Below, piece after piece: positions 3,087 to 63,589 of a DNA stretch of 64,000 nt (its first letter is position 1; each line of letters opens with the position of its first letter). This DNA is from Auanema rhodensis (lineage: Eukaryota; Animalia; Nematoda). Where the stretch lies: assembly GCA_964057225.1 (NCBI GenBank), contig OZ059900.1, forward strand, positions 14,880,001 through 14,944,000, read 5' to 3'. The notes below the pieces were generated by a model, which was given only the letters and a program-made list of their open reading frames with translations, made no database searches and was not told where the DNA came from. Made by a program: the position numbers and the translations under genes.

Positions 3087-3110
3087 ACAAGATCAAATCA
3101 CTTTTGAAAA

Positions 3111-3269
3111 TATATTTAAAATCATATTCATTTTCTCATAGTCTGTTTGGATCTCTCAACTTGGAACCATTGAGAATCTAAATGGAACTCCTCAAGACTC
3201 AGGCATCTCATCATCTCATTATCTTACTTTCTCTTTATCTGCTTTATATTCTCTTTCTTAACTCTAGCT
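3111..3269 (+). repeat. Scrambled LTR fragments (3' end piece 3111-3188, internal piece 3189-3269) preceding the 5' LTR
   Basis: 3111-3188 matches the LTR 3' end (..ctaaatggaac); 3189-3269 matches the LTR interior (tcctcaagactcagg..tctagct). Confidence 0.85.
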
Positions 3270-3675
3270 TGTTACATACGAAAGCAGCTGACCATGACAG
3301 CTGCTATTATAAAACTACTGCAGATAGTTTTTAAGCAATTCTGAGAATATTCTAGATGCACTTTTTATAAGCTTTGTAACAATTTGTGTAAACTGAGTAG
3401 GAGTTGTATGGATATATAAACCTGAGTCCTCAAGACTCAGGCATCTCATCATCTCATTATCTTACTTTCTCTTTATCTGCTTTATATTCTCTTTCTTAAC
3501 TCTAGCTTTAATCTTTGTATAATTATATTATATTGCGAACAATAAACCTTTATATATTTCATCTCTTGTTTCTTATTTCACCTTACATTACACATTTATA
3601 TTTAAAATCATATTCATCTTCTCATAGTCTGTTTGGATCTCTCAACTTGGAACCATTGAGAATCTAAATGGAACG
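3270..3675 (+). repeat. 5' LTR of Gypsy copy 1 (406 bp, 11-bp deletion near start)
   Basis: TGTTACA...GGAACG; matches 10518-10934 with roughly 14 substitutions by eye. Confidence 0.92.
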
Positions 3676-3693
3676 TGGAGGTTCCACCGAGAT
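3676..3693 (+). promoter_or_regulatory. Primer-binding site complementary to tRNA-Gln 3' end
   Basis: TGGAGGTTCCACCGAGAT directly after the LTR is the reverse complement of ATCTCGGTGGAACCT-CCA, the metazoan tRNA-Gln 3' end. Confidence 0.88.
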
Positions 3694-4873
3694 CCTTCCT
3701 TTTGGACAGGATCTCGTAAAGGAACTCAAGCGCTACCGTCTACATCTCTTATTCAATTAAAAATCTTATCGCTCTCTTAAAGTTAGCTTATAATATTTTC
3801 TTAAAAATTCTAAAACTTTTCTATTAAAAATTATATCCAAAAACTCTTTACAAAAACTCAGTTTTCTATTCATTATATTCTCATAAATCATTTTCAGTTA
3901 TTCAGAAGAGTACCTATATCATTCTCTCTATCCAAAATCCTATATACGAAAATTATTCAAATTCAATAATTAACTTTTCTAAGAATTATAAGTTTATTTT
4001 CACATTTTTTGAACAAAAATAGTTAAGTTCTTTATAAAATTAATTTAGAATTAAGAAATAAAAAGGAATATTGCTTCTATACCTCTCAATCTTAATCATC
4101 TTATCATATTATCTCAATCTTCATCTTATCATACTATTTTAATCATACTATCATACCATATTTTCCTTATTTTCTTTATGTTCGTTTATAAAACTATTAT
4201 TCTTATACTACTACACTGTATTCTCATAAACCCACCCCTTCCCCCCCGTAATTTCATAAGCAAGAAATCCCGTGTTAAACACGACAGTAAAAATATTTAT
4301 TAGGCGCAGCGTATCCAAATTCCGATTACCTTAGCACCTGAAAAAACGAAAAATAATTAAATTAATCAATAAGTTTTAACTCATACGCAAAAACCATTCC
4401 CCCCCTCGTTAAGAATAATGCCAGACACTCAAGAGACTCGAGCGGAGGCCGACACTCAGGATAAGACGTACGCCCCATGAAATAATTAGAGAATTTTTGA
4501 ATTGAAATCTGCCCCACATTGATATAAATAATAAGAGTGGTCTCGCCATCATAGAGTCAGGGAGCAGGATGCAGAAGGCAGCTGACATACCTGTGACTCA
4601 GATAGGTTAATGAGGTCTGGGAAAATGAAATGATTGCGAAAATTCTATTTTGTATCCTTGTCCCAAAAGACTGGCGAACTATTAACTTTCATTTCATGCT
4701 TTTTTCACGATATAGAACTTGTCCCTTCGAAAAGGCACACTAGTTTCAAACCTGTGTTAGACCTGGACGAGCTATATTGGTAAAGAGATTACTTGCAAGA
4801 CTAGCTACCTTCATAAGAATCGCGCACACAAACCCAACATTATTCTTTACGTTTTTCTATATATATAAACATT

Positions 4874-7813
4874 TTGGCACACGTTGGATATAACAAATTT
4901 CTTTACAGGATACCAACGATGCTGCCCAATACTGGTCCAAAACCTCCGCTGGACCCTGCTGCCACTTCAAATATTATAAGAAGAAAAAGGCAACCGCCCG
5001 CAACATATTCTCCCCCCTCTGCAAAACAAGCGAAGTTAAGCATTAAAACAAAGTCAATGGTAATACATACCCCAAGACATCGTGGCATTCAAAAACAATT
5101 CACCAATCCCAAATCACATGAAAAAACGAAGAAACAAAAAACAGACATAGTCGAAAGAAACACCTTAGAAAAGAAAATTATCCCAAGCATTAAACCTATT
5201 CCTAAAAACATAGCAAGCAAAGGGAACCCTCAAAACCCCCCAACCAACACCATACCAAAAACAATCAACCCAATCAATCCTTTAATAGCCACCCCTAGAA
5301 GAAGCAATACACCAACCACACAAAAATCACCTACGCCCGCACTTTCTTCAACCACACCCGCAGTAAGCTCATCCCCACCTCTACGAAACTCACCTTCATC
5401 CATTGATCATTCTACATCTGGGCATTCTCTATTTCCGTCTCTTCCATCGCAAACTAATCAAGCAAATACTTTTGTCGCAGAAAACAAGAGAATTAACCCA
5501 AGAATGGACCCAATGGATGAAGGCGCACCACTTACGCAAACCTCGGGAAGGGCACCTGTTCCAACACCTACAATCATCCCTCAACCAGCAGCGATTCCGT
5601 CCGCCATACGCGATATAAAAACTCCACGCTACGATGGAAAAACACCATTCAACCGCTATCTACTATATCTAGATGAACACTTCAACGCTACAAGAACAAC
5701 TATGCCCGAACGTTTTCAAAGCATACAATTATTGCTAGAAGATGATCGAGCAAGGGGAGCGTACAGAAAACTCACAACCGAAGATAAGCGACTTGGATGG
5801 GACCATGTCAAAAAGCGACTCTCAGAAATGATCACACCGAAAAAACAGAGAGAACGAGCAATGCACCGCCTACATGGCTTGAAACAGTTACCAACGGAAT
5901 CGGTACAAAGCTTTGCAACAAGATGTTCTAACGAAGCCTACTCGGCTATGGACATGAACAACGAAAGTGAGCTTAACATGCTCCGATCCACCTTCACCTG
6001 GGGACTAAGACCCGAAATAAGCGAACATGTTAGCCGTCTAGACCCACCAAACTTTGAGGAAGCTTACGAAATGGCCTTACGAGAAGAACTCTTTATACAA
6101 AATAGACCACCATCGTTCGTCAACAATATGGAGAAGTCGTTCAACAACCTCAACATTCGAGACTCAAAGGACAACAATCAATACCAGAGAAACGAATCTA
6201 AGGATTTCAAAGGAACCAAACCGATGTATAATGGCAATGGCAAACTACACAACCGATATCCGGACAGATACAACAACCAATATCGGCCTCATCAACACCA
6301 ATACAGGAACCATAACTCACGATTTTCTCAAAATAAGGAATCAAGACAAAACTACTTCGACAGATCACGGAACAGAAGCCAGGAAAGACCATACTATCGA
6401 AACCGCGACCAAAACTATAGCGGACACAACAACCGGCGACAATCAAATAATCACGAACAATACCCCTCTCAATACAATCGAAGCCAATACAACAATTATA
6501 GAAGTCGCCCGCGCAGCACCTCCAATGGACCGGAACAGTATAGAGAACGCACACAGAGCCCAGGAGTACGTTTTCAAGTCAACAACGTCACGGAAAACGA
6601 AGTACCGAACAACAAACGAAAATCAACACCATTCCTACCCCTCTTTATCACAATTATCGCACTCATTATAAACACATGCAGTGCAGAAACAACGTACCAG
6701 TTATGCACAGGAAACAGAGGAGGAATATATGTTGAACCGCCATCTCCAACAGCTTGCCGATTCATCGCACCAACTAATAACCATATCCAGAAGACTACAG
6801 CAGAATTGTTCATCCAAAACCTACAACCAAAAGAATGGGAAGCATGGAAATGTGCAATTGAAACTTACCAACTCTGCATTCACGACGTTTTCTTCACCAG
6901 AGAAACTAATGTCTCACTAGCAAAAGTTTCACCAACAACACTGCAAGAATGTTCGTCAGCTATTAAAGAAAGAATATTCAACGGTACCAACCTTCACAGA
7001 GAAGCACCAGGACTCTATGGAACTTCATTCCCACATACAACTATTACTAATGGTATATGGAAACAGGAATGCGAACAACGTACCAGATTCATAGCTGAAC
7101 GAGGACACATGACCAGCCTACAAGACAATACAGTACTCTCAGATATATTCATAAACGACAACGGATGCACCAGTGACAAAGGACAATGCATAACCAACAA
7201 CGCTCTCATCATATGGACCCCACCATCAGAAAAACATAGTTGCTCGTACACTTCATTAGGCTCTCACGAAGTTTTTATATCAGAAGACACCATATTGATT
7301 CCCGGAATTCAAAGTGCTTTCATTCTAAACAATAAAACACCGGAAAAAGAAGCCTCCTCATGCTTACAAAAAGAGATATTTACTACAAATAATGGAACTC
7401 TAATCTCCTTCAACTCAACCTCAAGCTTAGGACGATCAAGAAGACACGCAATCACGGAATACCCTAAAGGATTCTTGACAGTTCATCAATACCCCTCGCT
7501 AAGATATTCAGCCAGCAAAACCGGAACTATTCTACTATATACAACCTATATTCAACGGAAAAGACTTGACATCTATTATAATCTCAATAACATAACAAAT
7601 ATGTTGCCTAAGTATATCGCAATCTTCAAATACCTAGGTATAAATTTTGATGTTATCAAAAATCGTCTTATATGGCACAAATATGAAGACGTCAACATAG
7701 CCATTCTACACGCCCTAGGAGAAGCACAAATAAGAGAAGCAACAAAAATCGCGATCGATAATCTATCGTATAAGGAACTTAAGCATAAACTTAGCAAACG
7801 GATCAAAAATTAA
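4874..7813 (+). CDS. gag: Gag (Pro/Ser/Thr-rich N-term, capsid, N/Q/R/Y-rich tail) fused to internal signal peptide and N-half of envelope glycoprotein; likely start ATG 4919
   Basis: Retrotransposon capsid-like PRYDG..F..Y and LKQ..ESVQSFATR segments; hydrophobic FLPLFITIIALIINTCSA (6632-6685); then Cys-rich region with N-glycosylation sequons and RSRR furin-type site (7433-7444). Confidence 0.85.
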   Translation: MAHVGYNKFLYRIPTMLPNTGPKPPLDPAATSNIIRRKRQPPATYSPPSAKQAKLSIKTKSMVIHTPRHRGIQKQFTNPKSHEKTKKQKTDIVERNTLEKKIIPSIKPIPKNIASKGNPQNPPTNTIPKTINPINPLIATPRRSNTPTTQKSPTPALSSTTPAVSSSPPLRNSPSSIDHSTSGHSLFPSLPSQTNQANTFVAENKRINPRMDPMDEGAPLTQTSGRAPVPTPTIIPQPAAIPSAIRDIKTPRYDGKTPFNRYLLYLDEHFNATRTTMPERFQSIQLLLEDDRARGAYRKLTTEDKRLGWDHVKKRLSEMITPKKQRERAMHRLHGLKQLPTESVQSFATRCSNEAYSAMDMNNESELNMLRSTFTWGLRPEISEHVSRLDPPNFEEAYEMALREELFIQNRPPSFVNNMEKSFNNLNIRDSKDNNQYQRNESKDFKGTKPMYNGNGKLHNRYPDRYNNQYRPHQHQYRNHNSRFSQNKESRQNYFDRSRNRSQERPYYRNRDQNYSGHNNRRQSNNHEQYPSQYNRSQYNNYRSRPRSTSNGPEQYRERTQSPGVRFQVNNVTENEVPNNKRKSTPFLPLFITIIALIINTCSAETTYQLCTGNRGGIYVEPPSPTACRFIAPTNNHIQKTTAELFIQNLQPKEWEAWKCAIETYQLCIHDVFFTRETNVSLAKVSPTTLQECSSAIKERIFNGTNLHREAPGLYGTSFPHTTITNGIWKQECEQRTRFIAERGHMTSLQDNTVLSDIFINDNGCTSDKGQCITNNALIIWTPPSEKHSCSYTSLGSHEVFISEDTILIPGIQSAFILNNKTPEKEASSCLQKEIFTTNNGTLISFNSTSSLGRSRRHAITEYPKGFLTVHQYPSLRYSASKTGTILLYTTYIQRKRLDIYYNLNNITNMLPKYIAIFKYLGINFDVIKNRLIWHKYEDVNIAILHALGEAQIREATKIAIDNLSYKELKHKLSKRIKN

Positions 7814-7955
7814 GGATTTTAAGAAGATACTACAAACCAAAACAGGAGACTACTATGAAATCGCGAAAGAAATTGCTTACTCACTTGCGGAAATACCTAC
7901 TACGTTAGCTACAGGAGAAACAACACCATCTTTAGAAGAATACTTATATCAACTC

Positions 7956-10322
7956 ATGCCACCAAGAAAACCAAGACTCACCAAGACACGAAACGATTTA
8001 GAACTGTACGAACAACTAGCACAAGCAAAAATTATCCTGAACGCAATGAATAATCCGAAGAAGCTACATTCAAAAGAAGAATACGAAGCAGAAATGAAGA
8101 AATGGATCAAATATGAAAAAGAACTGAATTTACCACCATTACAACTGCCAAACTACACAGTTATCTTCGATGGCGACGATATATTCTACGGCTTCCGGAA
8201 AAGAAATCCTACAAATTATAGCATTACACAAGAGGATAGTGAAAAATTTTATAATCATTATCTACCCCTTATCAGTACTCCCGGAACACGACCTTTTGCA
8301 ACCACAATTAGAAGCACTTCGACCCCCCTACAAACTACTACTACAACCACTACCACGACCCCTAAGCCTACAACCATAAGAAACGTCATCACTTCGGCAA
8401 TCACACCCAAAACACATATATCCACAACAACTAGACCCAAACCAACAATACCCACGTCTTCATCAACTACTACTACTACTACCACTACTACTACTACTAC
8501 TTCTACTACTGCTAGACCCAGATCAACAACAACCACAACACCTACAACAACCACAACTATATTCACCACTCATCGACCAACACAATCATTCTCCACCCCC
8601 CAATCTACATTCAATATTACTACAAACCCAATCACAATCACCTCAAGCCAGGAATACAATAGGAAAGAATCACTCACCAAGTCACCGCCTCCAAGAACTA
8701 CAAAAAGATCTATCACTACCACTCGCAGCACACCTGAAGAAATATCATCACATATTGGTAAGAAATCCCACGTAGACTACATTAAAGCTAAGAACGATAT
8801 CGTCCAAAAATGGAATGAACATCTTCATCAACAAGAAACGCAATCTCATCTACAATATGCCACTACCAATCTGGAAGATGATATCATACGTACGTTCACA
8901 ACAAACAGAAACAACATCTGCCACGTACAAAATAAACAAATACTTACCTGGTGGGCTATTCTTCAAATAAATCCTACTATAGGGATGCGTACAATGCTAC
9001 GACGACAGGATATATCTGCAAGATTCATAAATGATAAACTAATTTATGTAATGCCATGCACACCAATTCAAATTACAAAAACATACCGTGATCACAAAGT
9101 CAACAGCACGTGTTTTCTGGAAACCCCAGTCAAAACGGAACATCACGGCCAACTGTTCATCCTACCAGGTACAAGAGACCTCACACCGATGGCACATGCC
9201 ATACCATGCGGACTCACAATCAAGGATCCCTGGAAAGAAAACGATCAATGGACTAATAATAACCAATCAATAAATGTAACATCACCAGCATACATCGACG
9301 AGTTAGGATCAATCAACCTAGAACATATCAAGTTTAATGGAAGCAACATTTTCAACAACCTAACAGAATCAACGTTTCCTATGGCACTAGCAATATCATA
9401 TGGATCCAGCTTAGCAACGCTACAGGCTACTTTACCAGGAAGAATAAAACCTGTAATCAAACAAAGATTAATTCCTAACATGAACCCTGTTACCCTAACA
9501 GCAGGAGCAGCCAGCAGCTTACTACTCAGCTACGAACATGCAAAAGAAGCTATAACTTGGAAAATGTTTGACTTTCTGTCACCAATATGGGAAAAGATTC
9601 AAACCTGGACACTACGCGTACTTGCTATCATTGGATCAATCATCATAACAATTGGCATAATCACACTCGCCACCTGGATAATAAAAATATACACATGTAG
9701 TTCAAGGATACCCATCAACAATGTCAAATGGGAAACAGAATACTTACAACCACTACCAACTGAGAACACAAGAACAGAAACATCTCATCCTTCTCCGTCC
9801 GCTCCATACCTCGACAACCATCACAACAGCTGTCAACTCACATTGTATGATCCTTCAGCACCAATTCCTGAACACATTTATGAAGCTTATTTCCCTACAA
9901 GCATGAAGAAAGAAAACATAAACTACATAGGAGGATCACAATTACCGTTTGTCCCGATTTCAATCCACAATCACATCTTTAAGGCACTATGGGACACGGG
10001 AGCATCAGCATCATACATGCGAGAATCCACCTTCAAACAACTGCCCGCTGCAACGATGGTACTAAAACAAACAACAGCGATAGTCGCGAATAAATCTAAA
10101 TTCTCATTTATGGGATACACAAGGATCCTCATAACAATAGGAACAACAGAAACAGAACACAAATTTTATGTAGCAGAAGATAACTACTGTCCAGCACCAG
10201 TGTTACTTGGAATAGACTTCATGGAAGCATTACATCAACAAGGAATTTACACTTCAATGGAGCTACTTGGACTAGCATCAATGACGGAAATGATCCAGGA
10301 AATTGACCAACTGGCGGATTAA
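7956..10322 (+). CDS. env: C-half of gB-like Env (Thr-rich mucin tract, gB core, TM) + aspartic protease, fused to last 21 codons of the accessory ORF; frame is open from ~7734
   Basis: HLQY..ICHVQN..W..INP..ISARFINDK..PCTPI resembles herpes gB domains III/IV; TM VLAIIGSIIITIGIITLATWII; protease ALWDTGAS and LLGIDF; ends MELLGLASMTEMIQEIDQLAD identical to the ORF 46765-47448 C-terminus. Confidence 0.85.
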   Translation: MPPRKPRLTKTRNDLELYEQLAQAKIILNAMNNPKKLHSKEEYEAEMKKWIKYEKELNLPPLQLPNYTVIFDGDDIFYGFRKRNPTNYSITQEDSEKFYNHYLPLISTPGTRPFATTIRSTSTPLQTTTTTTTTTPKPTTIRNVITSAITPKTHISTTTRPKPTIPTSSSTTTTTTTTTTTTSTTARPRSTTTTTPTTTTTIFTTHRPTQSFSTPQSTFNITTNPITITSSQEYNRKESLTKSPPPRTTKRSITTTRSTPEEISSHIGKKSHVDYIKAKNDIVQKWNEHLHQQETQSHLQYATTNLEDDIIRTFTTNRNNICHVQNKQILTWWAILQINPTIGMRTMLRRQDISARFINDKLIYVMPCTPIQITKTYRDHKVNSTCFLETPVKTEHHGQLFILPGTRDLTPMAHAIPCGLTIKDPWKENDQWTNNNQSINVTSPAYIDELGSINLEHIKFNGSNIFNNLTESTFPMALAISYGSSLATLQATLPGRIKPVIKQRLIPNMNPVTLTAGAASSLLLSYEHAKEAITWKMFDFLSPIWEKIQTWTLRVLAIIGSIIITIGIITLATWIIKIYTCSSRIPINNVKWETEYLQPLPTENTRTETSHPSPSAPYLDNHHNSCQLTLYDPSAPIPEHIYEAYFPTSMKKENINYIGGSQLPFVPISIHNHIFKALWDTGASASYMRESTFKQLPAATMVLKQTTAIVANKSKFSFMGYTRILITIGTTETEHKFYVAEDNYCPAPVLLGIDFMEALHQQGIYTSMELLGLASMTEMIQEIDQLAD

Positions 10323-10517
10323 AGAAGAGAGGAAAGGTTTAAATCATTTATAAAATTCTATCTCTTGAAAAAATTTTTCTCTTTATCAATAGTTTGTTGA
10401 AAAAAAAAAATTTGCTTTATCTCATGCCATTTTAATTTTTTTATTTTTTTATTTTTCTCTCTTAATTATTATTTGCATATAACAGCTGAGGTCAGCTGAC
10501 TTGTATCCGTTGGGGCA

Positions 10518-10934
10518 TGTTACATACATATCTCAAAGGAAAGCAGCTGACCATGGCAGCTGCTATTATTAAACTAATGCAGATAGTTTTTAAGCAATTC
10601 TGAGAATATTCTAGATGCACTTTTTATAAGCTTTGTAACAATTTGTGTAAACTGAGTAGGAGTTGTATGGATATATAAACCTGAGTCCTCAAGACTCAGG
10701 CATCTCATTATCTCATTATCTTACTTTCTCTTTATCTTCTTTATATTCTCTTTCTTAACTTTAGCTTTAATCTTTGTATAATTATATTATAATGCGAACA
10801 ATAAACCTTTATATATCTCATCTCTTGTTTAATATTTCACCTTACATTACACACTTATATTTAAAATCATACTCATCTTCTCATAGTCTGTTTGGATATC
10901 TCAACTTGGAACCATTGGGAATCTAAATGGAACG
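10518..10934 (+). repeat. 3' LTR of Gypsy copy 1 (417 bp)
   Basis: TG start after short GGGG tract; TATATAAA 10672-10679; AATAAA ~10800; ends GGAACG, then array resumes at ctgtctct. Confidence 0.95.
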
Positions 10935-14914: not shown

Positions 14915-15188
14915 TTTTTTGTTCGCATTAACACTTTAACCGCTTATTGAATTTGAATTGATACTCTCTGGTATCCTTTATACATTTACATTAAGTTGGT
15001 AAGTTATTTTATAAGTTCAATTTGTTTTATTTTAATTTTATTATTTCACATTTTATATTGTTTATATTTCATTCACATCTGTTATCTTATACAATTTCCT
15101 TTGTTCATCTGTCCAGAAATAAATCTTTTGTCTCAAATTACTCATCCTTTTCATACACATACTTTCTGATCAATCAAACATTAATATT

Positions 15189-18100
15189 TTGAATACCTTT
15201 TGGATATCCTTATTATATTTCAACCAATTAATATTAATATTGATATTGGCCAAACACCCTCAAGCCCATAAGACCATGAAAGCTCATGAAATCGACCAAC
15301 TTGTCACCAAAGACATTGGCGAAGAACATCCGCCCACAGTTGCAAAACTGATCAAGGGCATTTTGGACTATTGTGATGAGAGAGATCTCATGGTGAACAC
15401 AGGCGAAGTTGAGGAATATACTCAACTTATCCAACTTCGCCGAGATGAACTCGATGACTATCAGAGTTCATTTGACTCTACAGTACATGACTCAACAACA
15501 TTGCAAAATGACATGAACAGAATGAAATACTCCAGAAAAAATTTAGAGATGAGTTTCTTTTCTGGAATACAAAAACATTTGAACATCACACCAGATAGAA
15601 CACGACGACACAGAACACAAAGCACAAGTTCTGATGAAATCGGTTCCACACAAAGACAACCTACTCAAAAACGAGTGTACACTACTCGAGCAAACAATAG
15701 TGACGTTATGATCGCATCTCCTCAGCACGATATTTCAATGCTTGAACCAAACAGTAACTCCACTCTTTTGAACGATGACCTAATGCCGATATCAGAAAAT
15801 GATCTTGTTCATTCTTTTAACAATCTGAGTACTGGTTCTCATAGCTTGGAAAGAGCTAGAGCTGATGCTGACAATGTTGGAACCCCACTTGGAGCAGCTA
15901 ATAAGCGGAAAGCTCTCTCACCATTGAGACACGCGCACTACGATTCTCGACCAATTACAGTCGAACAACATACAAACAATGTTCCCGATCATTGGTCAAC
16001 TATGCAACAGAACATAGCACGACAATCTTCGATCCCACCTACTGTACAAACATCAATACTCACGCCTCGTCTTCCAACAGTTAAAGTACCACATTTCAAC
16101 GGTAATCCAGAAGACTTTCTTGGATTTTGGGAGTTGTTCACAGCAGTAATTGATGTTCAACCCTTGTCAGAGATTGAAAAGTTTTCCATTTTGCTCGACA
16201 GACTTTCTGGTCCAGCTGAAGAATGTTTACTGTGCTTGCCACGCATTGGTGTGAGTTACAGTAAGGCAAAGACCATCCTCATGGAAGAGTACATGAACCC
16301 CTCTATGTTAGACTCTAAACTATACGATTCACTGAGAGCCTTACCGGCAGCACTAGACAATAGTGCTTCGATACTACATACGATCCGCAAAGCTGATCAA
16401 ATCATATCGATGAGGATACGATACAGTCCTAATGTAGATCACACAGGGCTTCGCGTCATACTCTTCTCAAAATTACCTCGACACATCTATAACAGCATAT
16501 ACAAATCGAAACAACATACTACAATTACGTCAATCATTGAATACATCACGGAAGCCGCAAAAGCATTGCAGCTTGAAGAAGCCGATAAAAATGCAATGAG
16601 TCAGAGAAATAGCAATACTGTTCATATTGCAGCAGGACAACTACACACTAGTCGGCGAGAACAGTTCAATAACCAGAAATGCAATCTCTGTCTTGGCAAT
16701 CATTCTCCCACCAAATGTTATTCTATTCAATCGGTAGAAGAAAGGAAGAAGATAGCTGTATCCAAACAGCTATGCTTCAAATGTTTTTCGAAGACACACT
16801 CAGCCATTGGATGTCACGCACCGAATTGTCACCGCTGTGACAAAACACATCATGAGTCTCTGTGTCAACGCGATTCTCAATCCCGGAGTAATAGTAGGAC
16901 TAGAACTCACTCGAAGGATAGGATGAATCGGCATCCACCACAAACGCACAGAGGTTTTGAGGCTAACACAAGAAGATCACCTCATCGGAACAACGAAAAC
17001 AACAGAAAAGACCGCAGTGCGTCTATGAGACACTCATCGAGAAGCAAATCACCCTCATATTCACGGAGCAGATCACCTTACCCACAACGAAGACAATACA
17101 GAGCTCACTCCCCACGCCAACATATCTCGACTGCTACTGCACTCACTTACCCTTACGACCACATTTCAAATACATCAGGACCAGTCAATGACAAGGCCTT
17201 TGAATTCAGAAGAAACCACGTCGGAGTAGTCAGTGTGACAGTATTTGATTGCCACGATAATCCACATCATGTATACGCCTTGTTGGATTCGGGTTCACAA
17301 GTAGCTATCGTACGTAGAGAGTTGATCAACCGCTTGGGATTACCATTCGATGAAGATGTACGCATGAGAATGGAAACCGCGGGGGAACAATTTCTTCTTA
17401 AAGACACGCAAGCTATTATGATCGATCTCTACAATAACGATGGAGAGTGCATATCTGCCCCATGTGTTATAATGGATAAGGTTCTTTCAGCCATACAACC
17501 GTTAAGACTGACAAATGCCGATCAGCGTTTTATACGCCAGAACATTGGCTACTTATCTCGCAAATTGAATGATCCTATAGAGATTGATATCATCTTGGGC
17601 ATTGCTGAGGTCCATGCGAGTACCATCTATGATGAACCAATTATGCAATTGCCCGATTGCAATCTAGTCGCTCACCCCACTTTCTTTGGATATACACTAT
17701 CGGGAAGGTATGACTTAGATGACAACAACCCCACATACGCGGATAATGTAATCACATGCACAACAAAAATACATGACGATGTTGATCTCACAAAAATGTG
17801 GTCCATGGAATCTATTGGGATTCGAGACAACATATCAATCGAAGAAGAACAACAAGGGGTACTGAGCCAGTTCAATGAACAAGTAAGAAAGACATGGGAA
17901 GGCGTACACGTATCCTTTCCGTGGAAGGAAAACAAACACGCACTGGCCGATAACTACAGTATCGCATTAGCTAGACTGCGACAACAATTCAATCACGCAA
18001 AGAGCAATCCCGAGATGTGGGCAAAATACAATGAAATTTTTCAACAACAATTGGAGAGTAATATCATTGAAGACGCTCCAATTCACCCTGATAGCTCCCC

Positions 18101-21100
18101 AACTTATTATATACCGCATCAAGCGGTAGTTAAGTTGTCGAGTAACACTACCAAAGTACGTATAGTACTTGATGCATCCTCTCATCGACGAGGAGAACTA
18201 TCATTGAATGATGTTATACATCAGGGTCCAACAATCTTACCAAATCTAACAGGTCTATTGTTACGATGCAGGTTTGGAAAATACATGATCATCAGTGACG
18301 TTGAGAAGGCCTTTCACATGGTACATCTTAATAACACCGAAAAAGACGCCACTCGATTCCTTTGGCTTCACGATCTTTCGTTACCACCTGAACAGGATAA
18401 TATACGGGTGTTCCGATTTAACAGAGTACCATTCGGAGTCAATGCTTCTCCATTCCTTCTCGCTGGCGCAATCCAATTTGGGCTGAAATCCCATTCAGAC
18501 ACACAACTTACGAGTTGTATCATAGATAATCTTTATGTAGACAATCTCATTCTCACCTTTGATGAGACCTCACAAGGAGTAATGTTATACACACAGTGTA
18601 AGTCTGCGTTCAACGATATGAAGATGAACTTGAGAGAATTTTGTACTAATGACAAGAACACTATGAAAAGCATTCCAAAACATGACAAAGCAGAGAAGGT
18701 ACTGCAAAAAGTTTTGGAAATTTATTGGGACTCACACCTAGACACATTCAGTCTTGCACTTCAGATGGATTATACAGGTGACAGTATAACCAAGCGACTG
18801 GTACTCAGTACAGCGCACAAAACATTTGATCCAGTAGGATGGTTGAGTCCTTTAATCTTATTATCACGACACTTCTTACAAAAACTGTGGACACTTGGTT
18901 ACGCATGGGATGAACCAATCTCTCCCGACCTTCAACGTGAATGGAAACAGATATGCAGTTCGGTTCATGGATACCGATACCACGTACCTCGAAACATTCG
19001 CAATGACCACGTGAACGAACTCTGCATTTTTGTAGATGCTAGTACTATCGGATACGGTGCGGTAGGATATCTACGTACACTAGACCAAAAATCTCATGTT
19101 ACCGGAGTACACTTCCTCATGGCGAAACAGCGATTAGCACCACAGAACAAAAGCAAATCGCAGAAAAAAGATAAAAATAAAAAGCAACCGCTCACTATTC
19201 CTAGACTTGAACTACTTTCATTTTTTATCGGATGTCACATCATTGAGTTTCTGTTACAAGAAAGTAAATTGAACATATCGATCGTACGAATCTTCTCAGA
19301 TTCGGAAATATCACTTGCGTGGGTATGCAAACCAAATCCTGATGCAGGAATATTCGTCGATAACCGAGTTAGATCGTGTCGCGTTATCATTGATAAAGTC
19401 AAAGATAGTTATAATTTCTTTATTTACCACGTCGATACAGACCACAACCCAGCTGATCACGCAACGCGTGGACTTACAAGGGAAAACATTGACAAATCCA
19501 CATGGTTCACAGGACCGAAATTCTTACAAACGCACGACAAAGAATGGGAGATGACCAGACCCTATACTTATGTAGAGGACGACTCACAAGTACTGATCGC
19601 TAGTACCTCCATCACTACATTTGTCGACGATCCATCAATTTTCCGATATCAAAGCTCGCGATTAACATGTCTCATACGAACAACCGCATACGTACTTCGG
19701 TTTATACAACTCTTACAACAACGACGTCTACATCGCATCAACAACGACAACGAGATTGCTCTAAACCCTTCAACAATATCAGCTGACGAATATAAGGAGG
19801 CAGAGAGAGTTACTTATATTGATGTACAGAGTACAGTAGATAAAGAAGACAAGAGATGGAAACACCTTGGCCTCTATCACGATGAAATGGGTGTTATTCG
19901 ATGCAAAGGTAGACTGGAACACATGGAAGCTGAGGAGGATTGTATACATCCTATTTTCATACCGGATAATCACCCATTTGCTTCTATCATGATAAGAGAC
20001 ATGCACACCAAACTTTTCCACGCCGGTGGTAATCATTTACGTTCCGAAATACGACGACGATTTTGGTTACCAAGACTTCCCCGCAAGGTACAGAACATTT
20101 TGAAACAATGCGCGGTTTGTAAAAAACTTCATGGACGACCATTCAAATACCCCAACATGTCCTCACTTCCTCCTGAGAGAGTACAACGCAGTAACCCCTT
20201 TCAAAATTGCGGCATTGATCTTGCTGGTCCCTTCAACATACACGATGACACACGTCACATCACAGAGAAAAGATGGATTATGCTTGTCACCTGTATGGCC
20301 ACACGCGCTATCCATCTTGAAGTGGTACAAGACCTATCCGCATCCGAAACCTTGTTAGCACTTCGCAGATTCATCTCTCGAAGAGGTTCTCCTGATCTCA
20401 TCTGGAGCGATAACGGGTCTAATTTTACCCTCTGTCAGAAAATCTTTGCTCTCATACAAGATCCAAACGTCGACACGTATCTGACGCATCACAAGGTAAC
20501 TTGGAAGTTCATCACTCCGTTGGCACCTTGGAAAGGTGGTTTTTACGAGAGGATGGTCGGTATCATGAAATCGGCTCTTAGAACTAGTCTAACAACATCA
20601 TGTAAAGCCCACATGTTTTCAACGATTGTGACAGAGGTTGAACAAATTGTAAATACTCGACCATTAACATACACATTTAATACCACAACCGATCTATCTC
20701 CCATTCGACCGATCGACTTTCTACAAACGAACACATCAGTTACAATCCCCGACATAGAACTCAGTGAACTGCCCACTCATTTACGATCCAGGCGAGACTG
20801 CATAGATCGGTTAAACAACATTCAGAAAACACTTGACAAATTTTGGCAACGATGGCATGATGAATATGTCGTCGCCCTTCGAGCAACACACATGTTGGAT
20901 CACAAGCAAGGACATTTCTCCACAGCTACACCAAAAGTAGGCACAGTAGTGCTAATGTCAGATGACAATACGAAACGAAACCAGTGGAAAATGGGTTTAA
21001 TAACAAGCATACAGAACACGGAATCTGTGAGAGTTGCAGAAGTCCGTACATCTGATGGACACAAACTATTTAGACCCATCAATCGCCTGATTCCCCTTGA

Positions 21101-23750
21101 AATTCCTTCCGACAACGAGCATCATACGGAAAACAGGCATACGCAGTCCCCACACAAATCAGACAAAACTGTCACGTTTAAAGAAACTCCAGAGGTCATT
21201 TTACTCGATAACGAAGTATCATCCACCGTTGTGGAAACCAGCACATCGACCGGACCCAATACAACTGAAAACGTGATAGACCCAAACGTTATCACTATCA
21301 ACGATGATGATGACATCGAAGTGATCACCATTGCAGATGATGAAGGTGAAAATGAACCACAACCTCGAAAACGACGACGTCTCCCCAGTTACACACATTT
21401 TTTCATAGCCATGATACTGGGTATTCTCGTCAATCCAATGTCCGCAACCAACATCTGCCAGTTCTCTTGCATCAAAGGAGGAGTAGGCATATCAAACTGC
21501 GGTACTGGACATCCCATCCGAGTTTGTGCCCGGGAAACATGTGTAGAGTACAACCCAAATACTCCCAACTTCACCATAGTATTTCCGGCTTATGTTGTAT
21601 TGCATGACCACACATTCATCTCACGACATATTATCGATAAAAATGACACATTTGCATTGCATCAACTGGATTGTCCAGCAACTCCGTTTTGCGATATGAT
21701 TCAATGTCTGTTCTGTCTTGAACTACTCCACAACCCATCTTGTTTCCCATACGCAGCACTCTCGGCGACCGCACTCATCATATGGCTCATTCTATTTAGC
21801 ATTCTTTTAAGCATCATAGTCATCCGAATTTGTTCTAAAAAATTTGTTCACATTGCACAATACACCCTTTTTTCCGTTTGGCGTATGATCACTCAATGTC
21901 TCCCCTCTCATATAAGATCTCATATCTCTATTCAGGAAGAACGATCGGTACTCGAGTACGTCCCGCTCAGTTCTCACAAGCTACCTCGATGGCAGAAGTC
22001 TACACCCTCACAACGATCACGACAACGTGACCGATTAGTTCACCGAGTCGGGTATTTTTTGGTTGCAATAATCGTCATTTTTTTGATTGAATCTCTCGTA
22101 GTTAATGCATGTACTATTGTTCCTCCGAGTATATCACATGTTCCAGGCAACTCCGTCTCGAACTTATCACCTACTCACCAAGTCAACCAAGTCAGCAGCT
22201 CCACCACCCTCCATACTTACGATAATGAGGTATGTTTTACAACTTCACATTCAAACCGATCATACGCCAATCCCCTCACGAACTCACACCTGCGCATCAA
22301 ACTTATGTATACACGTATACTGTGCACGAAAGTATCCTTATTTTTTACACGTCACACCATCGTAAAAACTGAATCCGAAAAACGGTGTCCCCATATGGGC
22401 TCTTGTGTAGGATCGTTTTGTGCGAACGTTCGACCCAATACATCAATCTCAGAACTCTCATTAGCCAACCAATATCCAGGTACCAGCTATTGTTCAGAAA
22501 GCTGTGGATTTCTATCATGCGGTTGTGCGTTGCCAACTTCTGGTTGTCTCTTCTATCGCAACTTTCATGTTCCCAATGACAATATCACCCACGAAGTTTT
22601 CTACTGCTCACGATGGACACCTAGGGTTTTTCTCCAGATTAGCATCCATACAGCTATTGAGAACAAAACTGAAACGATCTCGCACGTCCCCTTTTTACCA
22701 CACTCTACAAAAATCATTAACGGGTACCATATTACTCTTGGGAGAATAACATATTCTGATAATGAAATCCTCCATAGACGATTCATTACTTCCAACTCGA
22801 GAATTGCAGTTTTACCTCACTCTGCTACATTTTCATACTCGTGCGGAGAAGTTAAAACCGCTGACCCATTCTCCGAATGTACTGCAACAGACACATGTTC
22901 ATGCAGACCAGCCGAAACAGTCGAAAATTGCTATTGTCAGGACAACAATCCTAACATGCTCTATACTAATAACTACACCCTACCATTATCTCTTCCATCT
23001 CTGACCATGATCCCAAAAAACAATCTCATTTTTGCTCATCCCATAAGCGCTGTTGACATTAAAATGTGGACAAATATCTCAGATGTCACTTATGAATACG
23101 ACAATAGTCCTACTATTTGCGAACTAAAATCCAAAGACCTAGTTGGATGTTTTGACTGTGTTACTGGAGCAACAACAATCATTACTTGCATCAGTACATC
23201 ATCCCACATTCGAATTTCGTGCGACGATGAAGAATTTCTGCTTACATGCAATTCTCAGGGTTACAACAACTCTATTCGCATACAGAGCAATTTTTCAACA
23301 CCGTCTATAACGTGTACTCATCCGTGTACTTCCGCCACATTACATCTCAAAGGCAACTTGTACTACGTGAACGAATACATAGGTGTTGAACAGTCCACTC
23401 ATCAGATTACAAACAGTTCATTCAGTCTCCTGAACGTCGAGTTTACCATACCGAGCTTTTTTGTACCCACTCACTTAATCAGCTCACTTGTTTCGTTTTA
23501 CTCGGACTACCTTAAAACGATTGTAATACTATTGAGTGTTTTGATCACAGTACTCGGCTTTGTAACCGCCGTAATTGACCGCGTCTTCCAGTTGTCAAGT
23601 ACACCCGCTCTCTTAGCATATTTACCCATACAAATACTTATTATCTGCGCAATTCCTTTTCGCATCATTTTTTTCACAATTCATTTGTTGTTCAAGATTG
23701 TAGTTCGAGCCAGTCATAGCGCAGTGGCTAAGGGTACGCACTCTCAGTGA
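15189..23750 (+). CDS. BEL/Pao Gag-Pro-RT-RNaseH-IN-Env polyprotein (Gn + class II fusogen Gc); likely start ATG 15276
   Basis: LPTVKVPHFNGNPEDFLGFWELF gag; three Cys/His knuckles; LLDSGSQ protease; YYIPHQAV, VPFGVNASPFLL, YVDN RT; FVDAS, TIPRLEL, NPAD RNaseH; H..H..C..C with IDLAGP, SDNGSNF, GGFYERMV integrase; signal-like FFIAMILGILV; Gc motif RCPHMGSC..YPGTSYCSESCG..CGC.LPTSGCLFYR; C-terminal TM. Confidence 0.95.
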   Translation: MNTFWISLLYFNQLILILILAKHPQAHKTMKAHEIDQLVTKDIGEEHPPTVAKLIKGILDYCDERDLMVNTGEVEEYTQLIQLRRDELDDYQSSFDSTVHDSTTLQNDMNRMKYSRKNLEMSFFSGIQKHLNITPDRTRRHRTQSTSSDEIGSTQRQPTQKRVYTTRANNSDVMIASPQHDISMLEPNSNSTLLNDDLMPISENDLVHSFNNLSTGSHSLERARADADNVGTPLGAANKRKALSPLRHAHYDSRPITVEQHTNNVPDHWSTMQQNIARQSSIPPTVQTSILTPRLPTVKVPHFNGNPEDFLGFWELFTAVIDVQPLSEIEKFSILLDRLSGPAEECLLCLPRIGVSYSKAKTILMEEYMNPSMLDSKLYDSLRALPAALDNSASILHTIRKADQIISMRIRYSPNVDHTGLRVILFSKLPRHIYNSIYKSKQHTTITSIIEYITEAAKALQLEEADKNAMSQRNSNTVHIAAGQLHTSRREQFNNQKCNLCLGNHSPTKCYSIQSVEERKKIAVSKQLCFKCFSKTHSAIGCHAPNCHRCDKTHHESLCQRDSQSRSNSRTRTHSKDRMNRHPPQTHRGFEANTRRSPHRNNENNRKDRSASMRHSSRSKSPSYSRSRSPYPQRRQYRAHSPRQHISTATALTYPYDHISNTSGPVNDKAFEFRRNHVGVVSVTVFDCHDNPHHVYALLDSGSQVAIVRRELINRLGLPFDEDVRMRMETAGEQFLLKDTQAIMIDLYNNDGECISAPCVIMDKVLSAIQPLRLTNADQRFIRQNIGYLSRKLNDPIEIDIILGIAEVHASTIYDEPIMQLPDCNLVAHPTFFGYTLSGRYDLDDNNPTYADNVITCTTKIHDDVDLTKMWSMESIGIRDNISIEEEQQGVLSQFNEQVRKTWEGVHVSFPWKENKHALADNYSIALARLRQQFNHAKSNPEMWAKYNEIFQQQLESNIIEDAPIHPDSSPTYYIPHQAVVKLSSNTTKVRIVLDASSHRRGELSLNDVIHQGPTILPNLTGLLLRCRFGKYMIISDVEKAFHMVHLNNTEKDATRFLWLHDLSLPPEQDNIRVFRFNRVPFGVNASPFLLAGAIQFGLKSHSDTQLTSCIIDNLYVDNLILTFDETSQGVMLYTQCKSAFNDMKMNLREFCTNDKNTMKSIPKHDKAEKVLQKVLEIYWDSHLDTFSLALQMDYTGDSITKRLVLSTAHKTFDPVGWLSPLILLSRHFLQKLWTLGYAWDEPISPDLQREWKQICSSVHGYRYHVPRNIRNDHVNELCIFVDASTIGYGAVGYLRTLDQKSHVTGVHFLMAKQRLAPQNKSKSQKKDKNKKQPLTIPRLELLSFFIGCHIIEFLLQESKLNISIVRIFSDSEISLAWVCKPNPDAGIFVDNRVRSCRVIIDKVKDSYNFFIYHVDTDHNPADHATRGLTRENIDKSTWFTGPKFLQTHDKEWEMTRPYTYVEDDSQVLIASTSITTFVDDPSIFRYQSSRLTCLIRTTAYVLRFIQLLQQRRLHRINNDNEIALNPSTISADEYKEAERVTYIDVQSTVDKEDKRWKHLGLYHDEMGVIRCKGRLEHMEAEEDCIHPIFIPDNHPFASIMIRDMHTKLFHAGGNHLRSEIRRRFWLPRLPRKVQNILKQCAVCKKLHGRPFKYPNMSSLPPERVQRSNPFQNCGIDLAGPFNIHDDTRHITEKRWIMLVTCMATRAIHLEVVQDLSASETLLALRRFISRRGSPDLIWSDNGSNFTLCQKIFALIQDPNVDTYLTHHKVTWKFITPLAPWKGGFYERMVGIMKSALRTSLTTSCKAHMFSTIVTEVEQIVNTRPLTYTFNTTTDLSPIRPIDFLQTNTSVTIPDIELSELPTHLRSRRDCIDRLNNIQKTLDKFWQRWHDEYVVALRATHMLDHKQGHFSTATPKVGTVVLMSDDNTKRNQWKMGLITSIQNTESVRVAEVRTSDGHKLFRPINRLIPLEIPSDNEHHTENRHTQSPHKSDKTVTFKETPEVILLDNEVSSTVVETSTSTGPNTTENVIDPNVITINDDDDIEVITIADDEGENEPQPRKRRRLPSYTHFFIAMILGILVNPMSATNICQFSCIKGGVGISNCGTGHPIRVCARETCVEYNPNTPNFTIVFPAYVVLHDHTFISRHIIDKNDTFALHQLDCPATPFCDMIQCLFCLELLHNPSCFPYAALSATALIIWLILFSILLSIIVIRICSKKFVHIAQYTLFSVWRMITQCLPSHIRSHISIQEERSVLEYVPLSSHKLPRWQKSTPSQRSRQRDRLVHRVGYFLVAIIVIFLIESLVVNACTIVPPSISHVPGNSVSNLSPTHQVNQVSSSTTLHTYDNEVCFTTSHSNRSYANPLTNSHLRIKLMYTRILCTKVSLFFTRHTIVKTESEKRCPHMGSCVGSFCANVRPNTSISELSLANQYPGTSYCSESCGFLSCGCALPTSGCLFYRNFHVPNDNITHEVFYCSRWTPRVFLQISIHTAIENKTETISHVPFLPHSTKIINGYHITLGRITYSDNEILHRRFITSNSRIAVLPHSATFSYSCGEVKTADPFSECTATDTCSCRPAETVENCYCQDNNPNMLYTNNYTLPLSLPSLTMIPKNNLIFAHPISAVDIKMWTNISDVTYEYDNSPTICELKSKDLVGCFDCVTGATTIITCISTSSHIRISCDDEEFLLTCNSQGYNNSIRIQSNFSTPSITCTHPCTSATLHLKGNLYYVNEYIGVEQSTHQITNSSFSLLNVEFTIPSFFVPTHLISSLVSFYSDYLKTIVILLSVLITVLGFVTAVIDRVFQLSSTPALLAYLPIQILIICAIPFRIIFFTIHLLFKIVVRASHSAVAKGTHSQ

Positions 23751-23887
23751 TTGATGACGGGTTCAATACCCAGTGAGTCCTCGATTTATTTTCTCGATTT
23801 CTTAGTTCCCTATCATAGCAAACGATTGTTCAATTTGATTTACACCAGTCCTACACAATTTATCATTTCGCCGGGGGGAGGTATACT

Positions 23888-24307
23888 ATGTATAAAAACC
23901 ATCATTATTTCAGTCTTGATAACATCAAAGAATGGAGCGATTCCCTTGATCAACTCCAGGATAACGGCAACGCAAAGATGCCAAACAAAGGTCAGAATAT
24001 GTCTGCACCAAAAAAGCAGAACAACTCTAAAGTGAAGTACAGAAAAATGGAAGAAGACATGAAATGTCAACTCTGTTGGAAGAAGGGCCACACCATGGGA
24101 AAATGCACAGTCTACAAGACTGCAGCACAACGCGTCAAGCGTTGCAAGTTGATCAACATGTGCTTGAAGTGTTTGCGGAACCACTTTGGAAAACCGTGTG
24201 TGGAGAAGATGAAGAAAATATGTCATGTGTGCAAAGGAAGCGGACTGGACCACGATCATCCTGGTGTATTATGCAAGCTGCAGTTTGCGGAGGAACTAGC
24301 AGAATGA
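23888..24307 (+). CDS. Small basic protein with three Cys/His (Zn-knuckle-like) clusters
   Basis: CQLCWKKGHTMGKC, CLKCLRNHFGKPC, CHVC..HDHPGVLC; same layout as the BEL gag knuckles upstream. Confidence 0.7.
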   Translation: MYKNHHYFSLDNIKEWSDSLDQLQDNGNAKMPNKGQNMSAPKKQNNSKVKYRKMEEDMKCQLCWKKGHTMGKCTVYKTAAQRVKRCKLINMCLKCLRNHFGKPCVEKMKKICHVCKGSGLDHDHPGVLCKLQFAEELAE

Positions 24308-24340
24308 AATCAGTTCTGATTTCTCTCTCCTGGCCCGGAA

Positions 24341-24695
24341 TATCGCGAATGCGATTATTCATCATTCAATCGATGCAATCTCATCACGTTGGCTGATGAG
24401 AGTCACGGACACTCTGTTTTATACCACCGTCGCGGACGGTCGCTTTTCTCTCTCCTCGCTGCTGTCTTTATCTTATGACTCATCTAGTCTGAACCACCGT
24501 TTTATCCTTGTCCTTTAGTAAGACTATCTCTAGTCTAATTAGTGATGTATATCTAGTCTTATTACATTCACTCTAGTCTTCTATGTACTTTATCTAGTCT
24601 TATTATATATCTTCTAGTCCTTATATTCTATATTATGTATATCTGAATGGCATATGAATGAATCTTTCTTCCTCTAATAGTCTTTTATGTTAACA
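24341..24695 (+). repeat. Putative 3' LTR of the BEL element
   Basis: Starts TATCGCG after GGCCCGGAA (compare TGTCGCG terminus of the solo LTR at 63589); AATGAA ~24657; ends TAACA; ~6 TCTAGTC motifs; no partner LTR to confirm ends. Confidence 0.45.
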
Positions 24696-24753
24696 GGGCA
24701 TAGAATAGAAAGTGTGAACCTGGGAGGCTATTTGAAGAGCCCTCTATCTTCAA

Positions 24754-46164: not shown

Positions 46165-46581
46165 CGTTCCATTTAGATTCTCAATGGTTCCAAGTTGAGA
46201 GATCCAAACAGACTATGAGAAGATGAGTATGATTTTAAATATAAGTGTGTAATGTAAGGTGAAATAAGAAACAAGAGATCAAATATATAAAGGTTTATTG
46301 TTCGCATTATAATATAATTATACAAAGATTTAAGCTAGAGTTAAGAAAGAGAATATAAAGAAGATAAAGAGAAAGGAAGATAATAAGATAATGAGATGCC
46401 TGAGTCTTGAGGACTCAGGTTTATATATCCATACAACTCCTACTCAGTTTACACAAATTGTTACAAAGCTTATAAAAAGTGCATCTAGAATATTCTCAGA
46501 ATTGCTTAAAAACTATCTGCATTAGTTTAATAATAGCAGCTGCCATGGTCAGCTGCTTTCCTTTGAGATATGTATGTAACA
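46165..46581 (-). repeat. 3' LTR of Gypsy copy 2
   Basis: Direct repeat of 55392-55808. Confidence 0.96.
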
Positions 46582-46764
46582 TGCCCCAACGGATACAAGT
46601 CAGCTGACCTCAGCTGTTATATGCAAATAATAATTAAGAGAGAAAAATAAAAATTAAAAAAAAAATGGCATGAGATAAAGCAAATTTTTCAACAAACTAT
46701 TGATAAAGAGAAAAAATTTTAAGAGATAGAATTTTATAAATGATTTAAACCTTTCCTCTCTTCT

Positions 46765-47448
46765 TTAATCCGCCAGTTGGTCAATTTCCTGGATCATTTC
46801 CGTCATTGATGCTAGTCCAAGCAGCTCCATTGTTCTGATGGTTTGGCTAACTGCTTTTGCCTTACTTTTTGATGCGGACATGTTGGTAGTCCTTTTTGTC
46901 AGTAGTTTTTTGATTACTACTGATAGGTCTTGCCCTATCTCTATCCACGATGCTTCTTCTTCGGTTCCGCTATTTCCTACAGCTTGTTGTGTCATCTGTG
47001 TTGTCCATGTCGGCATTGCTTTGTAGATGTCAGCTGTGGTCTGCGTTCTGGCGGGTTGTCCCAGCATTATGTTTCGGATTCTGTTCTCTTTCTGGCTGAG
47101 AGAACATCCTTCTGTCCATTTCTTTTGATGCTGGCGAAGCTCCTTCAGATCGTGATCCTTATAGTTTTTGGTTTTCTCCTCCAATAGTTCCATCATAAAT
47201 AGGATGTGCTGTGTCTTCTTTTCCAATTTGCTCGTTTGGAGGCTTATTATTGGTCCTAAGTTGGGCTTCATGCAGTTGATAGGTAGAAGACCTTCACGAA
47301 GGTTTTCTACCTCTATCCATTCTTGTTCAATAGTGGTCGCTAGAGGGACCAGTGGTGTTGGAGTTGCGAGGAATGTAGAGAGTGTGACGTTGGCGAGAGA
47401 GGAGGTCATTTTGAGTAAGAAAAGTGTTATTGAATTTTTCTCTATCAA
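46765..47448 (-). CDS. Accessory ORF of unknown function between pol and 3' LTR; likely start ATG 47409
   Basis: 227-codon open frame in element sense; C-terminal 21 codons conserved in copy 1 with synonymous differences. Confidence 0.7.
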   Translation of the reverse strand: MIEKNSITLFLLKMTSSLANVTLSTFLATPTPLVPLATTIEQEWIEVENLREGLLPINCMKPNLGPIISLQTSKLEKKTQHILFMMELLEEKTKNYKDHDLKELRQHQKKWTEGCSLSQKENRIRNIMLGQPARTQTTADIYKAMPTWTTQMTQQAVGNSGTEEEASWIEIGQDLSVVIKKLLTKRTTNMSASKSKAKAVSQTIRTMELLGLASMTEMIQEIDQLAD

Positions 47449-47612
47449 AATTTTCTCTTTATATAGTTTGTTTTTCAGTGATTGTTACAATTTGTTAAAA
47501 TTAAAGGATAGAAATTAGAATTTCGGTGGTTTTTGATCTATGTCTTATGTTTAATGTACTATACGAAAGAAAGGAAAATTATTTTTACAATTCTACGATT
47601 TTTGTTAGTTAA

Positions 47613-55373: not shown

Positions 55374-55391
55374 ATCTCGGTGGAACCTCCA
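55374..55391 (-). promoter_or_regulatory. Primer-binding site (tRNA-Gln)
   Basis: Same 18-mer as 3676-3693, abutting the 5' LTR. Confidence 0.88.
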
Positions 55392-55808
55392 CGTTCCATT
55401 TAGATTCTCAATGGTTCCAAGTTGAGAGATCCAAACAGACTATGAGAAGATGAGTATGATTTTAAATATAAGTGTGTAATGTAAGGTGAAATAAGAAACA
55501 AGAGATCAAATATATAAAGGTTTATTGTTCGCATTATAATATAATTATACAAAGATTTAAGCTAGAGTTAAGAAAGAGAATATAAAGAAGATAAAGAGAA
55601 AGGAAGATAATAAGATAATGAGATGCCTGAGTCTTGAGGACTCAGGTTTATATATCCATACAACTCCTACTCAGTTTACACAAATTGTTACAAAGCTTAT
55701 AAAAAGTGCATCTAGAATATTCTCAGAATTGCTTAAAAACTATCTGCATTAGTTTAATAATAGCAGCTGCCATGGTCAGCTGCTTTCCTTTGAGATATGT
55801 ATGTAACA
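55392..55808 (-). repeat. 5' LTR of Gypsy copy 2
   Basis: TGTTACA...GGAACG on minus strand, 417 bp. Confidence 0.96.
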
Positions 55809-63434: not shown

Positions 63435-63589
63435 TGTGGCGTTATACCACAAGTGTATAGTATGGTTGGAAGTAAAACACAAAGCAAATATGTAAAAAAG
63501 GGTTTATTGATGAATTAACAAGACAAGCACGGAATAAAATCACTGACTGCGAACGTTGAAAATGTAAGACCTACTCGCTTATCGCGACA
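63435..63589 (-). mobile_element. 155-bp solo-LTR-like insertion
   Basis: TG..CA ends with imperfect inverted termini (TGTGGCG / CGCGACA); 5-bp TSD ACTGT at 63430-63434 and 63590-63594; AATAAA on minus strand near 63503. Confidence 0.85.

Follow-up and report, generated by a model that had tools for sequence, protein, structure and literature searches.

The window analysed here, a 64,000-nucleotide stretch of contig OZ059900.1 of the nematode Auanema rhodensis, contained two copies of a Ty3/Gypsy element in which the envelope (Env) lay between Gag and the enzymes. The copies were assigned to a young multi-copy family with the order Gag-Env-protease (PR)-reverse transcriptase (RT)-RNase H (RH)-integrase (IN), and intact members likely encode one polyprotein that crosses the endoplasmic reticulum (ER) membrane twice. 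This layout is real but not new, and the family is one more in a published group. We added a pattern of candidate protease sites, an insert of approximately 440 amino acids with a module inside it, and a spliced antisense RNA.

Domain order in the window, in relatives and in public contigs

Copy 1 carried the Gag and Env end of the element between its long terminal repeats (LTRs), with the following features.

3087-10934, plus strand: gypsy copy 1 segment
3270-3675, plus strand: 5' LTR, ending TG...CG
3676-3687, plus strand: primer-binding site, tRNA-Gln type
4919-6631, plus strand: Gag, with a disordered Pro/Ser/Thr-rich N-terminus, a capsid domain and an Arg/Asn/Gln-rich C-terminus
6578-6589, plus strand: VNNV, candidate protease site ahead of the signal
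6632-6685, plus strand: predicted internal signal peptide (hydropathy; equivalent segment in 7 relatives)
6686-7444, plus strand: Env N-terminal half, predicted fold of a class III fusogen, with the furin motif RSRR at its end
7445-8303, plus strand: Cys-free post-furin insert, including a module of ~55 residues at 7577-7747
8304-8768, plus strand: Thr/Ser-rich mucin-like stretch, 54% S+T
8757-9608, plus strand: Env C-terminal half, region matching glycoprotein B (gB) domains III-IV
9618-9686, plus strand: predicted transmembrane (TM) helix (hydropathy)
9714-9725, plus strand: INNV, candidate protease site downstream of the TM helix
9918-9929, plus strand: INYI, second candidate protease site, before PR
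9942-10256, plus strand: aspartic protease (DTG), in the same frame as the TM helix
10518-10934, plus strand: 3' LTR

Gag (566 residues) started at ATG 4919 and matched Retrotrans_gag (E 1.6e-5, Pfam match at 5744-6010). It had no CCHC knuckle and one cysteine only. The signal at 6632-6685 was the sole hydrophobic peak of the gag-side frame by hydropathy. The 253 residues after it contained 10 cysteines, 8 of which were invariant across 6 aligned sequences, and the furin motif followed at 7433-7444. In the second frame, the TM helix was the only 19-residue hydrophobic peak, and PR came after it (E 2.7e-8). These results agreed with the original prediction, made from the letters alone, of a gag-env-pol order with a signal-like stretch, a Cys-rich glycoprotein bearing RSRR, a TM helix near 9618-9690 and then an in-frame protease.

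Copy 1 was damaged. Its coding region was split over two frames (4817-7813 and 7734-10322) with the break in the post-furin insert of Env near 7.8 kb, and RT-RH-IN was missing beyond a deletion junction at 10256 with 2-nt microhomology. This deletion joined PR in frame to the last codons of a 214-codon ORF that follows pol. The two LTRs were identical at 392 of 417 alignment columns, rearranged LTR fragments lay to the left of the 5' LTR (3087-3269), and a target-site duplication could not be recovered for this copy.

Copy 2 supplied the enzymes.

46165-55808, minus strand: gypsy copy 2, 9,644 bp
47613-54128, minus strand: ORF in which the N-part of Gag is fused to the Thr-rich stretch, Env C-terminal half, TM helix, PR, RT, RH and IN
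50274-50753, minus strand: RT
49695-50087, minus strand: RH
48843-49349, minus strand: IN
46765-47409, minus strand: extra 214-codon ORF after pol

One frame of 2205 codons (47613-54230, minus strand) ran through the Env C-terminal half, TM helix, PR, RT, RH and IN, as had been claimed for the part from the TM helix onward. The 417-bp LTRs of copy 2 (55392-55808 and 46165-46581) were identical at 417 of 417 positions and were flanked by a 4-bp target-site duplication. An in-frame internal deletion at 53344 had removed the equivalent of copy 1 positions 5704-8389. Splicing was considered as the cause of the deletions in both copies and was rejected, since neither junction had GT-AG ends and both had 2-nt microhomology. 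The whole polyprotein was visible in neither copy alone. The predicted full length of about 12.3 kb was reproduced as arithmetic only, with the copy lengths adding up to 12,330 bp.

The Pol order PR-RT-RH-IN in copy 2, the paired LTRs, the target-site duplication and the tRNA-Gln-type primer-binding site identified the element as Ty3/Gypsy. All four LTRs ended in TG...CG instead of the usual TG...CA (ends at 3675, 10934, 46165 and 55392), and in copy 2 these ends coexisted with the clean 4-bp duplication. Upstream of the 3' LTR, only a short G run occupied the polypurine-tract position. The 214-codon ORF gave no family match above cutoff in the Pfam search. ESM Atlas had no usable match for it or for the second part of the post-furin insert, and these blanks carry no weight. 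The copies differed by 4 synonymous and 6 non-synonymous codons out of 261, and by 4 and 13 codons out of 622 in a second compared region, too few for a selection test. Both copies were defective and could be mobilised only in trans.

The same order was found in other nematodes. With Env-PR-RT of copy 2 as the query, a protein search gave 104 matches, and 13 of them were scanned. Ten were nematode proteins with a fusion-glycoprotein match before RT, from Auanema, Caenorhabditis, Diploscapter, Ancylostoma and Oesophagostomum; the remaining three did not have this order. Gag, Env, PR and RT were present in a single protein in 5 of the 13 (P0005, P0006, P0009, P0011 and P0012), which answered the original suggestion to look for full-length siblings. 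Three further Caenorhabditis proteins came from a profile search. The C. nigoni gene model P0004 combined a gB-type gypsy polyprotein with segments of BEL integrase and phlebovirus G2, probably through nested insertion or through the merging of annotations.

The stretch was contained in 15 public sequencing runs, 13 of which had half its words or more. Contigs were compared with copy 1 in four runs from four studies and with copy 2 in four runs. At 10256, where copy 1 is deleted, the contigs of all four runs continued into pol. An X11 contig of 3282 nt was unbroken from gag to Env, and Env-PR-pol was unbroken in contigs of X1 (3684 nt) and X2 (3590 nt). At the copy 1 frameshift, contigs differed from copy 1 in 4/4 runs, over the entire depth in three of them. 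The copy 2 deletion was likewise absent from the contigs, with loose ends at 53344-53345 in 4/4 runs. One of the compared runs may be the source of the window itself.

A midpoint-rooted RT-RH tree was built from the window and the 43 of 100 proteins with enough RT-RH cover. The window fell in a nematode clade of 15 members with support of 1.00, in which 14 had Env upstream and P0015 was not examined for Env. The RT-RH of the window was 75.7% identical to that of an Auanema protein. Together, these comparisons pointed to a rhabditid nematode as the likely host. The relatives' proteins, the public contigs and the RT-RH clade agreed without any merging of the two copies, and this meant that the gene order was real. 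The claim of one continuous polyprotein was upheld by the single frame of the relatives and by the public contigs, but not by copy 1 itself, which is frameshifted within Env.

Envelope identity, predicted membrane topology and candidate protease sites

The Env C-terminal half matched Monjiviricetes_fusion above cutoff (E 2.1e-12) and Glycoprotein_B below cutoff (E 3.2e-6). A profile made from 9 Env sequences matched PDB chains of herpesvirus gB, starting at E 7.4e-10. The Env N-terminal half alone found none among 396 candidates in a word-based protein search and no Pfam family, and it was identified solely through alignment to relatives and fold comparison. The structure model of this half in the window (pLDDT 71) matched gB with E 1.5e-10 and a TM-score of 0.52. 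Its best matches among predicted viral structures were the glycoproteins of Beihai rhabdo-like virus 3 (E 1.1e-13) and Midway nyavirus (E 4.5e-13). A model of the whole ectodomain of one relative had low confidence (pLDDT 59, pTM 0.34); it matched gB with E 2.3e-16 but with a TM-score of only ~0.25, so that the domain arrangement was not established by it. These results suggested that Env is a predicted class III fusogen resembling herpes gB and nyamivirus glycoproteins.

The distance from the furin motif to the Env C-terminal half was ~440 residues in the window, compared with ~17-140 in the five relatives measured. Scored against a profile built from six relatives, the module of ~55 residues in this insert reached 21.0 bits, compared with 7.1 for the best of 200 shuffles. 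Of 12 relatives checked, 3 had Thr-rich stretches like that of the window (P0001, P0009 and P0012).

Standard translocation rules would place Gag in the cytosol, Env in the lumen and Pol in the cytosol. A short motif, [IV]N-x-hydrophobic, was distributed in keeping with this topology. In the window it occurred 18 residues before the signal, ~10 residues after the TM helix and just before PR; it also occurred in the RH-IN linker and once inside RT-RH, and there was none in the Env of the window. In 7 relatives, the 280 residues before the signals held 8 motifs, spread over 5 of the 7 proteins, and the 280 residues after the TM helices held 7, spread over 6 of the 7; the 4836 residues of predicted lumen held only one. 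The motifs are candidate sites for the element's own protease. Such a protease would reach the cytosolic side only, so that its sites would flank Env and be nearly absent within it, and the observed pattern thus supports a polyprotein that threads the membrane.

We infer the following course of synthesis and processing. Gag would be made in the cytosol. The internal signal would then direct Env across the ER membrane, with its N-terminus freed by signal peptidase on the luminal side, and the TM helix would stop transfer and return PR-RT-RH-IN to the cytosol. The element's protease would cut at the [IV]N-x-hydrophobic sites, which would detach Gag from the signal anchor and separate Pol from a short Env tail, and the RSRR site of Env would be cut by host furin. 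With Gag, Env and Pol produced in equal amounts (1:1:1) and starting out on the same membrane, the budding of enveloped particles able to pass from cell to cell would be favoured. The threading of the ER membrane, as originally proposed, was therefore supported in its topology. However, a lasting tether of Pol to the membrane, which had been part of that proposal, is improbable because one candidate site lies ~10 residues after the TM helix and another lies before PR. Candidate sites on both cytosolic sides would explain how a secreted fusogen can be placed amid a cytosolic polyprotein, and they provide a processing map that can be tested.

Several points weigh against the twofold crossing by a single polyprotein. 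The window and some of the 7 relatives had already been viewed when the motif was defined, and three of those 7 (P0006, P0106 and P0107) are close kin. P0005 had no strict motif at either junction. The signal and TM calls came from hydropathy alone. N-glycosylation sequons were only mildly enriched in the Env halves, at ~1.8-2.0 per 100 residues compared with 0.9-1.2 in Pol and Gag. Several relatives had an extra hydrophobic stretch just before PR, absent from the window; if membrane-spanning, this stretch would conflict with the simple topology. At the copy 1 break, the differing contigs of X1 made up about half of the depth (154/304); contig depths were uncalibrated and were not taken as copy number. 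In addition, the polyprotein, the particles and the fusion are predictions from sequence. The stretch before PR was Pro-rich and conserved in P0002, P0003, P0005, P0006, P0007 and their kin, and it could be a membrane-embedded hairpin.

Antisense RNA and alternative readings

Three RNA-like runs from one study had contigs that skipped 12 segments of 41-588 nt over the Env C-terminal half, PR and the start of RT. All 12 had GT-AG ends on the strand opposite to the element, and 9 of them recurred in two or three runs.

50585-52999, plus strand: span of the 12 antisense GT-AG introns, a family-level signal
8209-8677, minus strand: a 13th antisense intron of 469 nt, on copy 1 in run X11

The RNA status of the three runs was the guess of a tool, and no listed run was recorded as RNA. 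GT-AG ends are expected by chance in 2.5% of random joints. None of the antisense introns was found in the DNA runs compared (X1, X2 and X6 on copy 1; X2 on copy 2). The RNA-like runs did not cover the LTR and leader, and no weight was given to this. A coding role for this RNA was rejected: stops in all three frames were present in 7 of 10 exons, tested with 11 of the 12 introns and with an alternative 78-nt intron left out, which argued for a non-coding RNA. The sense strand of the element was 39% A, so the antisense strand is rich in U and resembles an intron. Most simply, transcripts reading through from a host locus would be spliced at cryptic sites. The RNA may also be a regulator encoded by the element. 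The spliced antisense RNA is thus a lead on how the host or the element restrains the family.

The gene order could stand as described while Env is expressed in another way, either from a subgenomic (spliced or trans-spliced) RNA or by a programmed frameshift near 7.8 kb that sets the ratio of Gag to Env-Pol, with the long polyprotein as a minor product. The frame change inside Env in copy 1 would fit this, and a 1:1:1 ratio is atypical for retroelements. However, the contigs departed from copy 1 at this break in every run compared, the relatives read through in one frame, and no sense-strand GT-AG joint was among the 12 (copy 1) and 13 (copy 2) joints listed, though contigs drop rare forms. 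We regard this expression route as quite unlikely. A different alternative leaves the polyprotein as it is and takes Env as a captured passenger of an ordinary intracellular retrotransposon, where it would only anchor assembly to membranes and no infectious particles would form. Copy 2 had lost most of Env and yet had identical LTRs and a clean target-site duplication, so it may have moved without an Env of its own, and Env was less similar to that of relatives (22-46% identity) than was RT-RH (48-76%). Against this, the cysteines, the signal and the TM helix were kept across distant nematodes, as was the furin motif in most relatives, and the dominant contigs of the family kept Env whole. Such a passenger role seems rather improbable to us.

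The layout might instead be suspected to be an accident of the locus (nested insertion, chimaera or repeat-array assembly artefact), since both copies are damaged and their 438-bp tandem array also holds a BEL element that has an envelope itself. This reading was refuted by the 10 nematode proteins with the same order and by the contigs of four runs from four studies; moreover, the neighbouring BEL envelope is phlebovirus-type and of a different class. Its likelihood is negligible. The polyprotein that crosses the ER membrane twice therefore remained our preferred account of intact members. A fuller version would be a working enveloped nematode virus with cuts by its own protease on both cytosolic sides of Env, a lineage-specific module and mucin-like shield at the furin linker, and a self-encoded multi-intron antisense RNA across env-pro-RT that limits expression. 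We consider this combination unlikely, and the literature searched held no description of antisense-RNA control of these elements. Being young and represented in several public data sets, the family may suit the question of whether nematode gypsy elements spread between cells.

Genomic setting and relation to known elements

The window was a 438-bp tandem array in which each unit carried one tRNA-Asp(GTC) gene, and 82 such genes were called. Most units were 97-100% identical, and the array may extend past the window ends. It was broken by four segments, namely the two gypsy copies and the two listed here.

14915-24753, plus strand: BEL/Pao element with phlebovirus-type envelope
63435-63589: TG...CA insertion of 155 bp, flanked by a 5-bp target duplication

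The BEL/Pao element had an unbroken Gag-Pol-Env frame of 2875 codons with a C-terminal phlebovirus G2-type glycoprotein, followed by a 162-codon frame (23819-24307) with Cys/His knuckle-like motifs. No LTR pair was found for it at 14915-24753. The 155-bp insertion probably represents a third family's solo LTR. It lay at the same repeat-unit position, within a few bases, as the right end of copy 1, ~65 bp upstream of the tRNA gene, and this coincidence may be due to chance. Targeted insertion beside tRNA genes was not supported, as the element junctions fell at differing places in the 438-bp unit.

The novelty of the layout, raised in the original prediction, did not hold. According to the available text of Chary & Hayashi (eLife 2026, PMC13524379), gypsy elements that carry env in Nematoda, Bryozoa and Platyhelminthes have HSV/gB-type ENV only, in the order GAG-ENV-POL, and the nematode case is credited there to Sacco et al. 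2022 (J Gen Virol 103, doi 10.1099/jgv.0.001739). The elements described in those parts of PMC13524379 share with the window family the gene order, a gB-type Env between signal and TM helix, and chromadorean hosts. The tRNA-Gln primer-binding site is also that of several Caenorhabditis rows, and its 12-mer was identical to rows Clat_4 and Ctro_1 of Supplementary file 1 of PMC13524379. The window family fell in this group by its Env between gag and pol, its predicted class III Env and an RT that grouped with Env-upstream nematode elements; the flanking of the ectodomain by signal and TM helix was seen by hydropathy and alignment only. It differed from the elements in the available text in the ~440-residue post-furin insert, the LTRs ending in CG and the antisense spliced RNA. 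The main text of PMC13524379, as far as available, was silent on 'single ORF', 'fused' and 'mucin', and a processing model was not found there. Processing, antisense splicing and tRNA-array insertion of these elements were not found in the literature searched, which excluded most subscription journals.

Insect errantiviruses (gypsy, ZAM) and vertebrate retroviruses are also LTR elements with gag, pol and env. However, their env stands as an ORF of its own 3' of pol and is F-type in Drosophila errantiviruses (compare the available text of PMC13524379). A separate env ORF downstream of pol was not found in the gypsy copies of the window. Nematode BEL/Pao elements (Atlas virus and the Cer13 group) likewise have Env fused in the one polyprotein of an LTR element. 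They differ in their Belpaoviridae enzymes, in the place of Env after integrase and in a phlebovirus-type class II glycoprotein. Pao peptidase, DUF1759 and phlebovirus-type Env were absent from the gypsy copies and were present only in the neighbouring BEL/Pao element. The NERVs that Sacco and colleagues described in 2022 reportedly have one continuous gag-env-pro-pol ORF, a nyamivirus-like Env and small extra ORFs. The ORFs of the window and the nyavirus match of its Env agree with that description. In the C-E polyproteins of flaviviruses and hepaciviruses, the capsid is followed by an internal signal and a luminal glycoprotein, and the viral protease cuts on the cytosolic side and host enzymes cut on the luminal side. 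The window family would work alike but is not a member of that group, as the replication enzymes are unrelated and the fusogen class differs.

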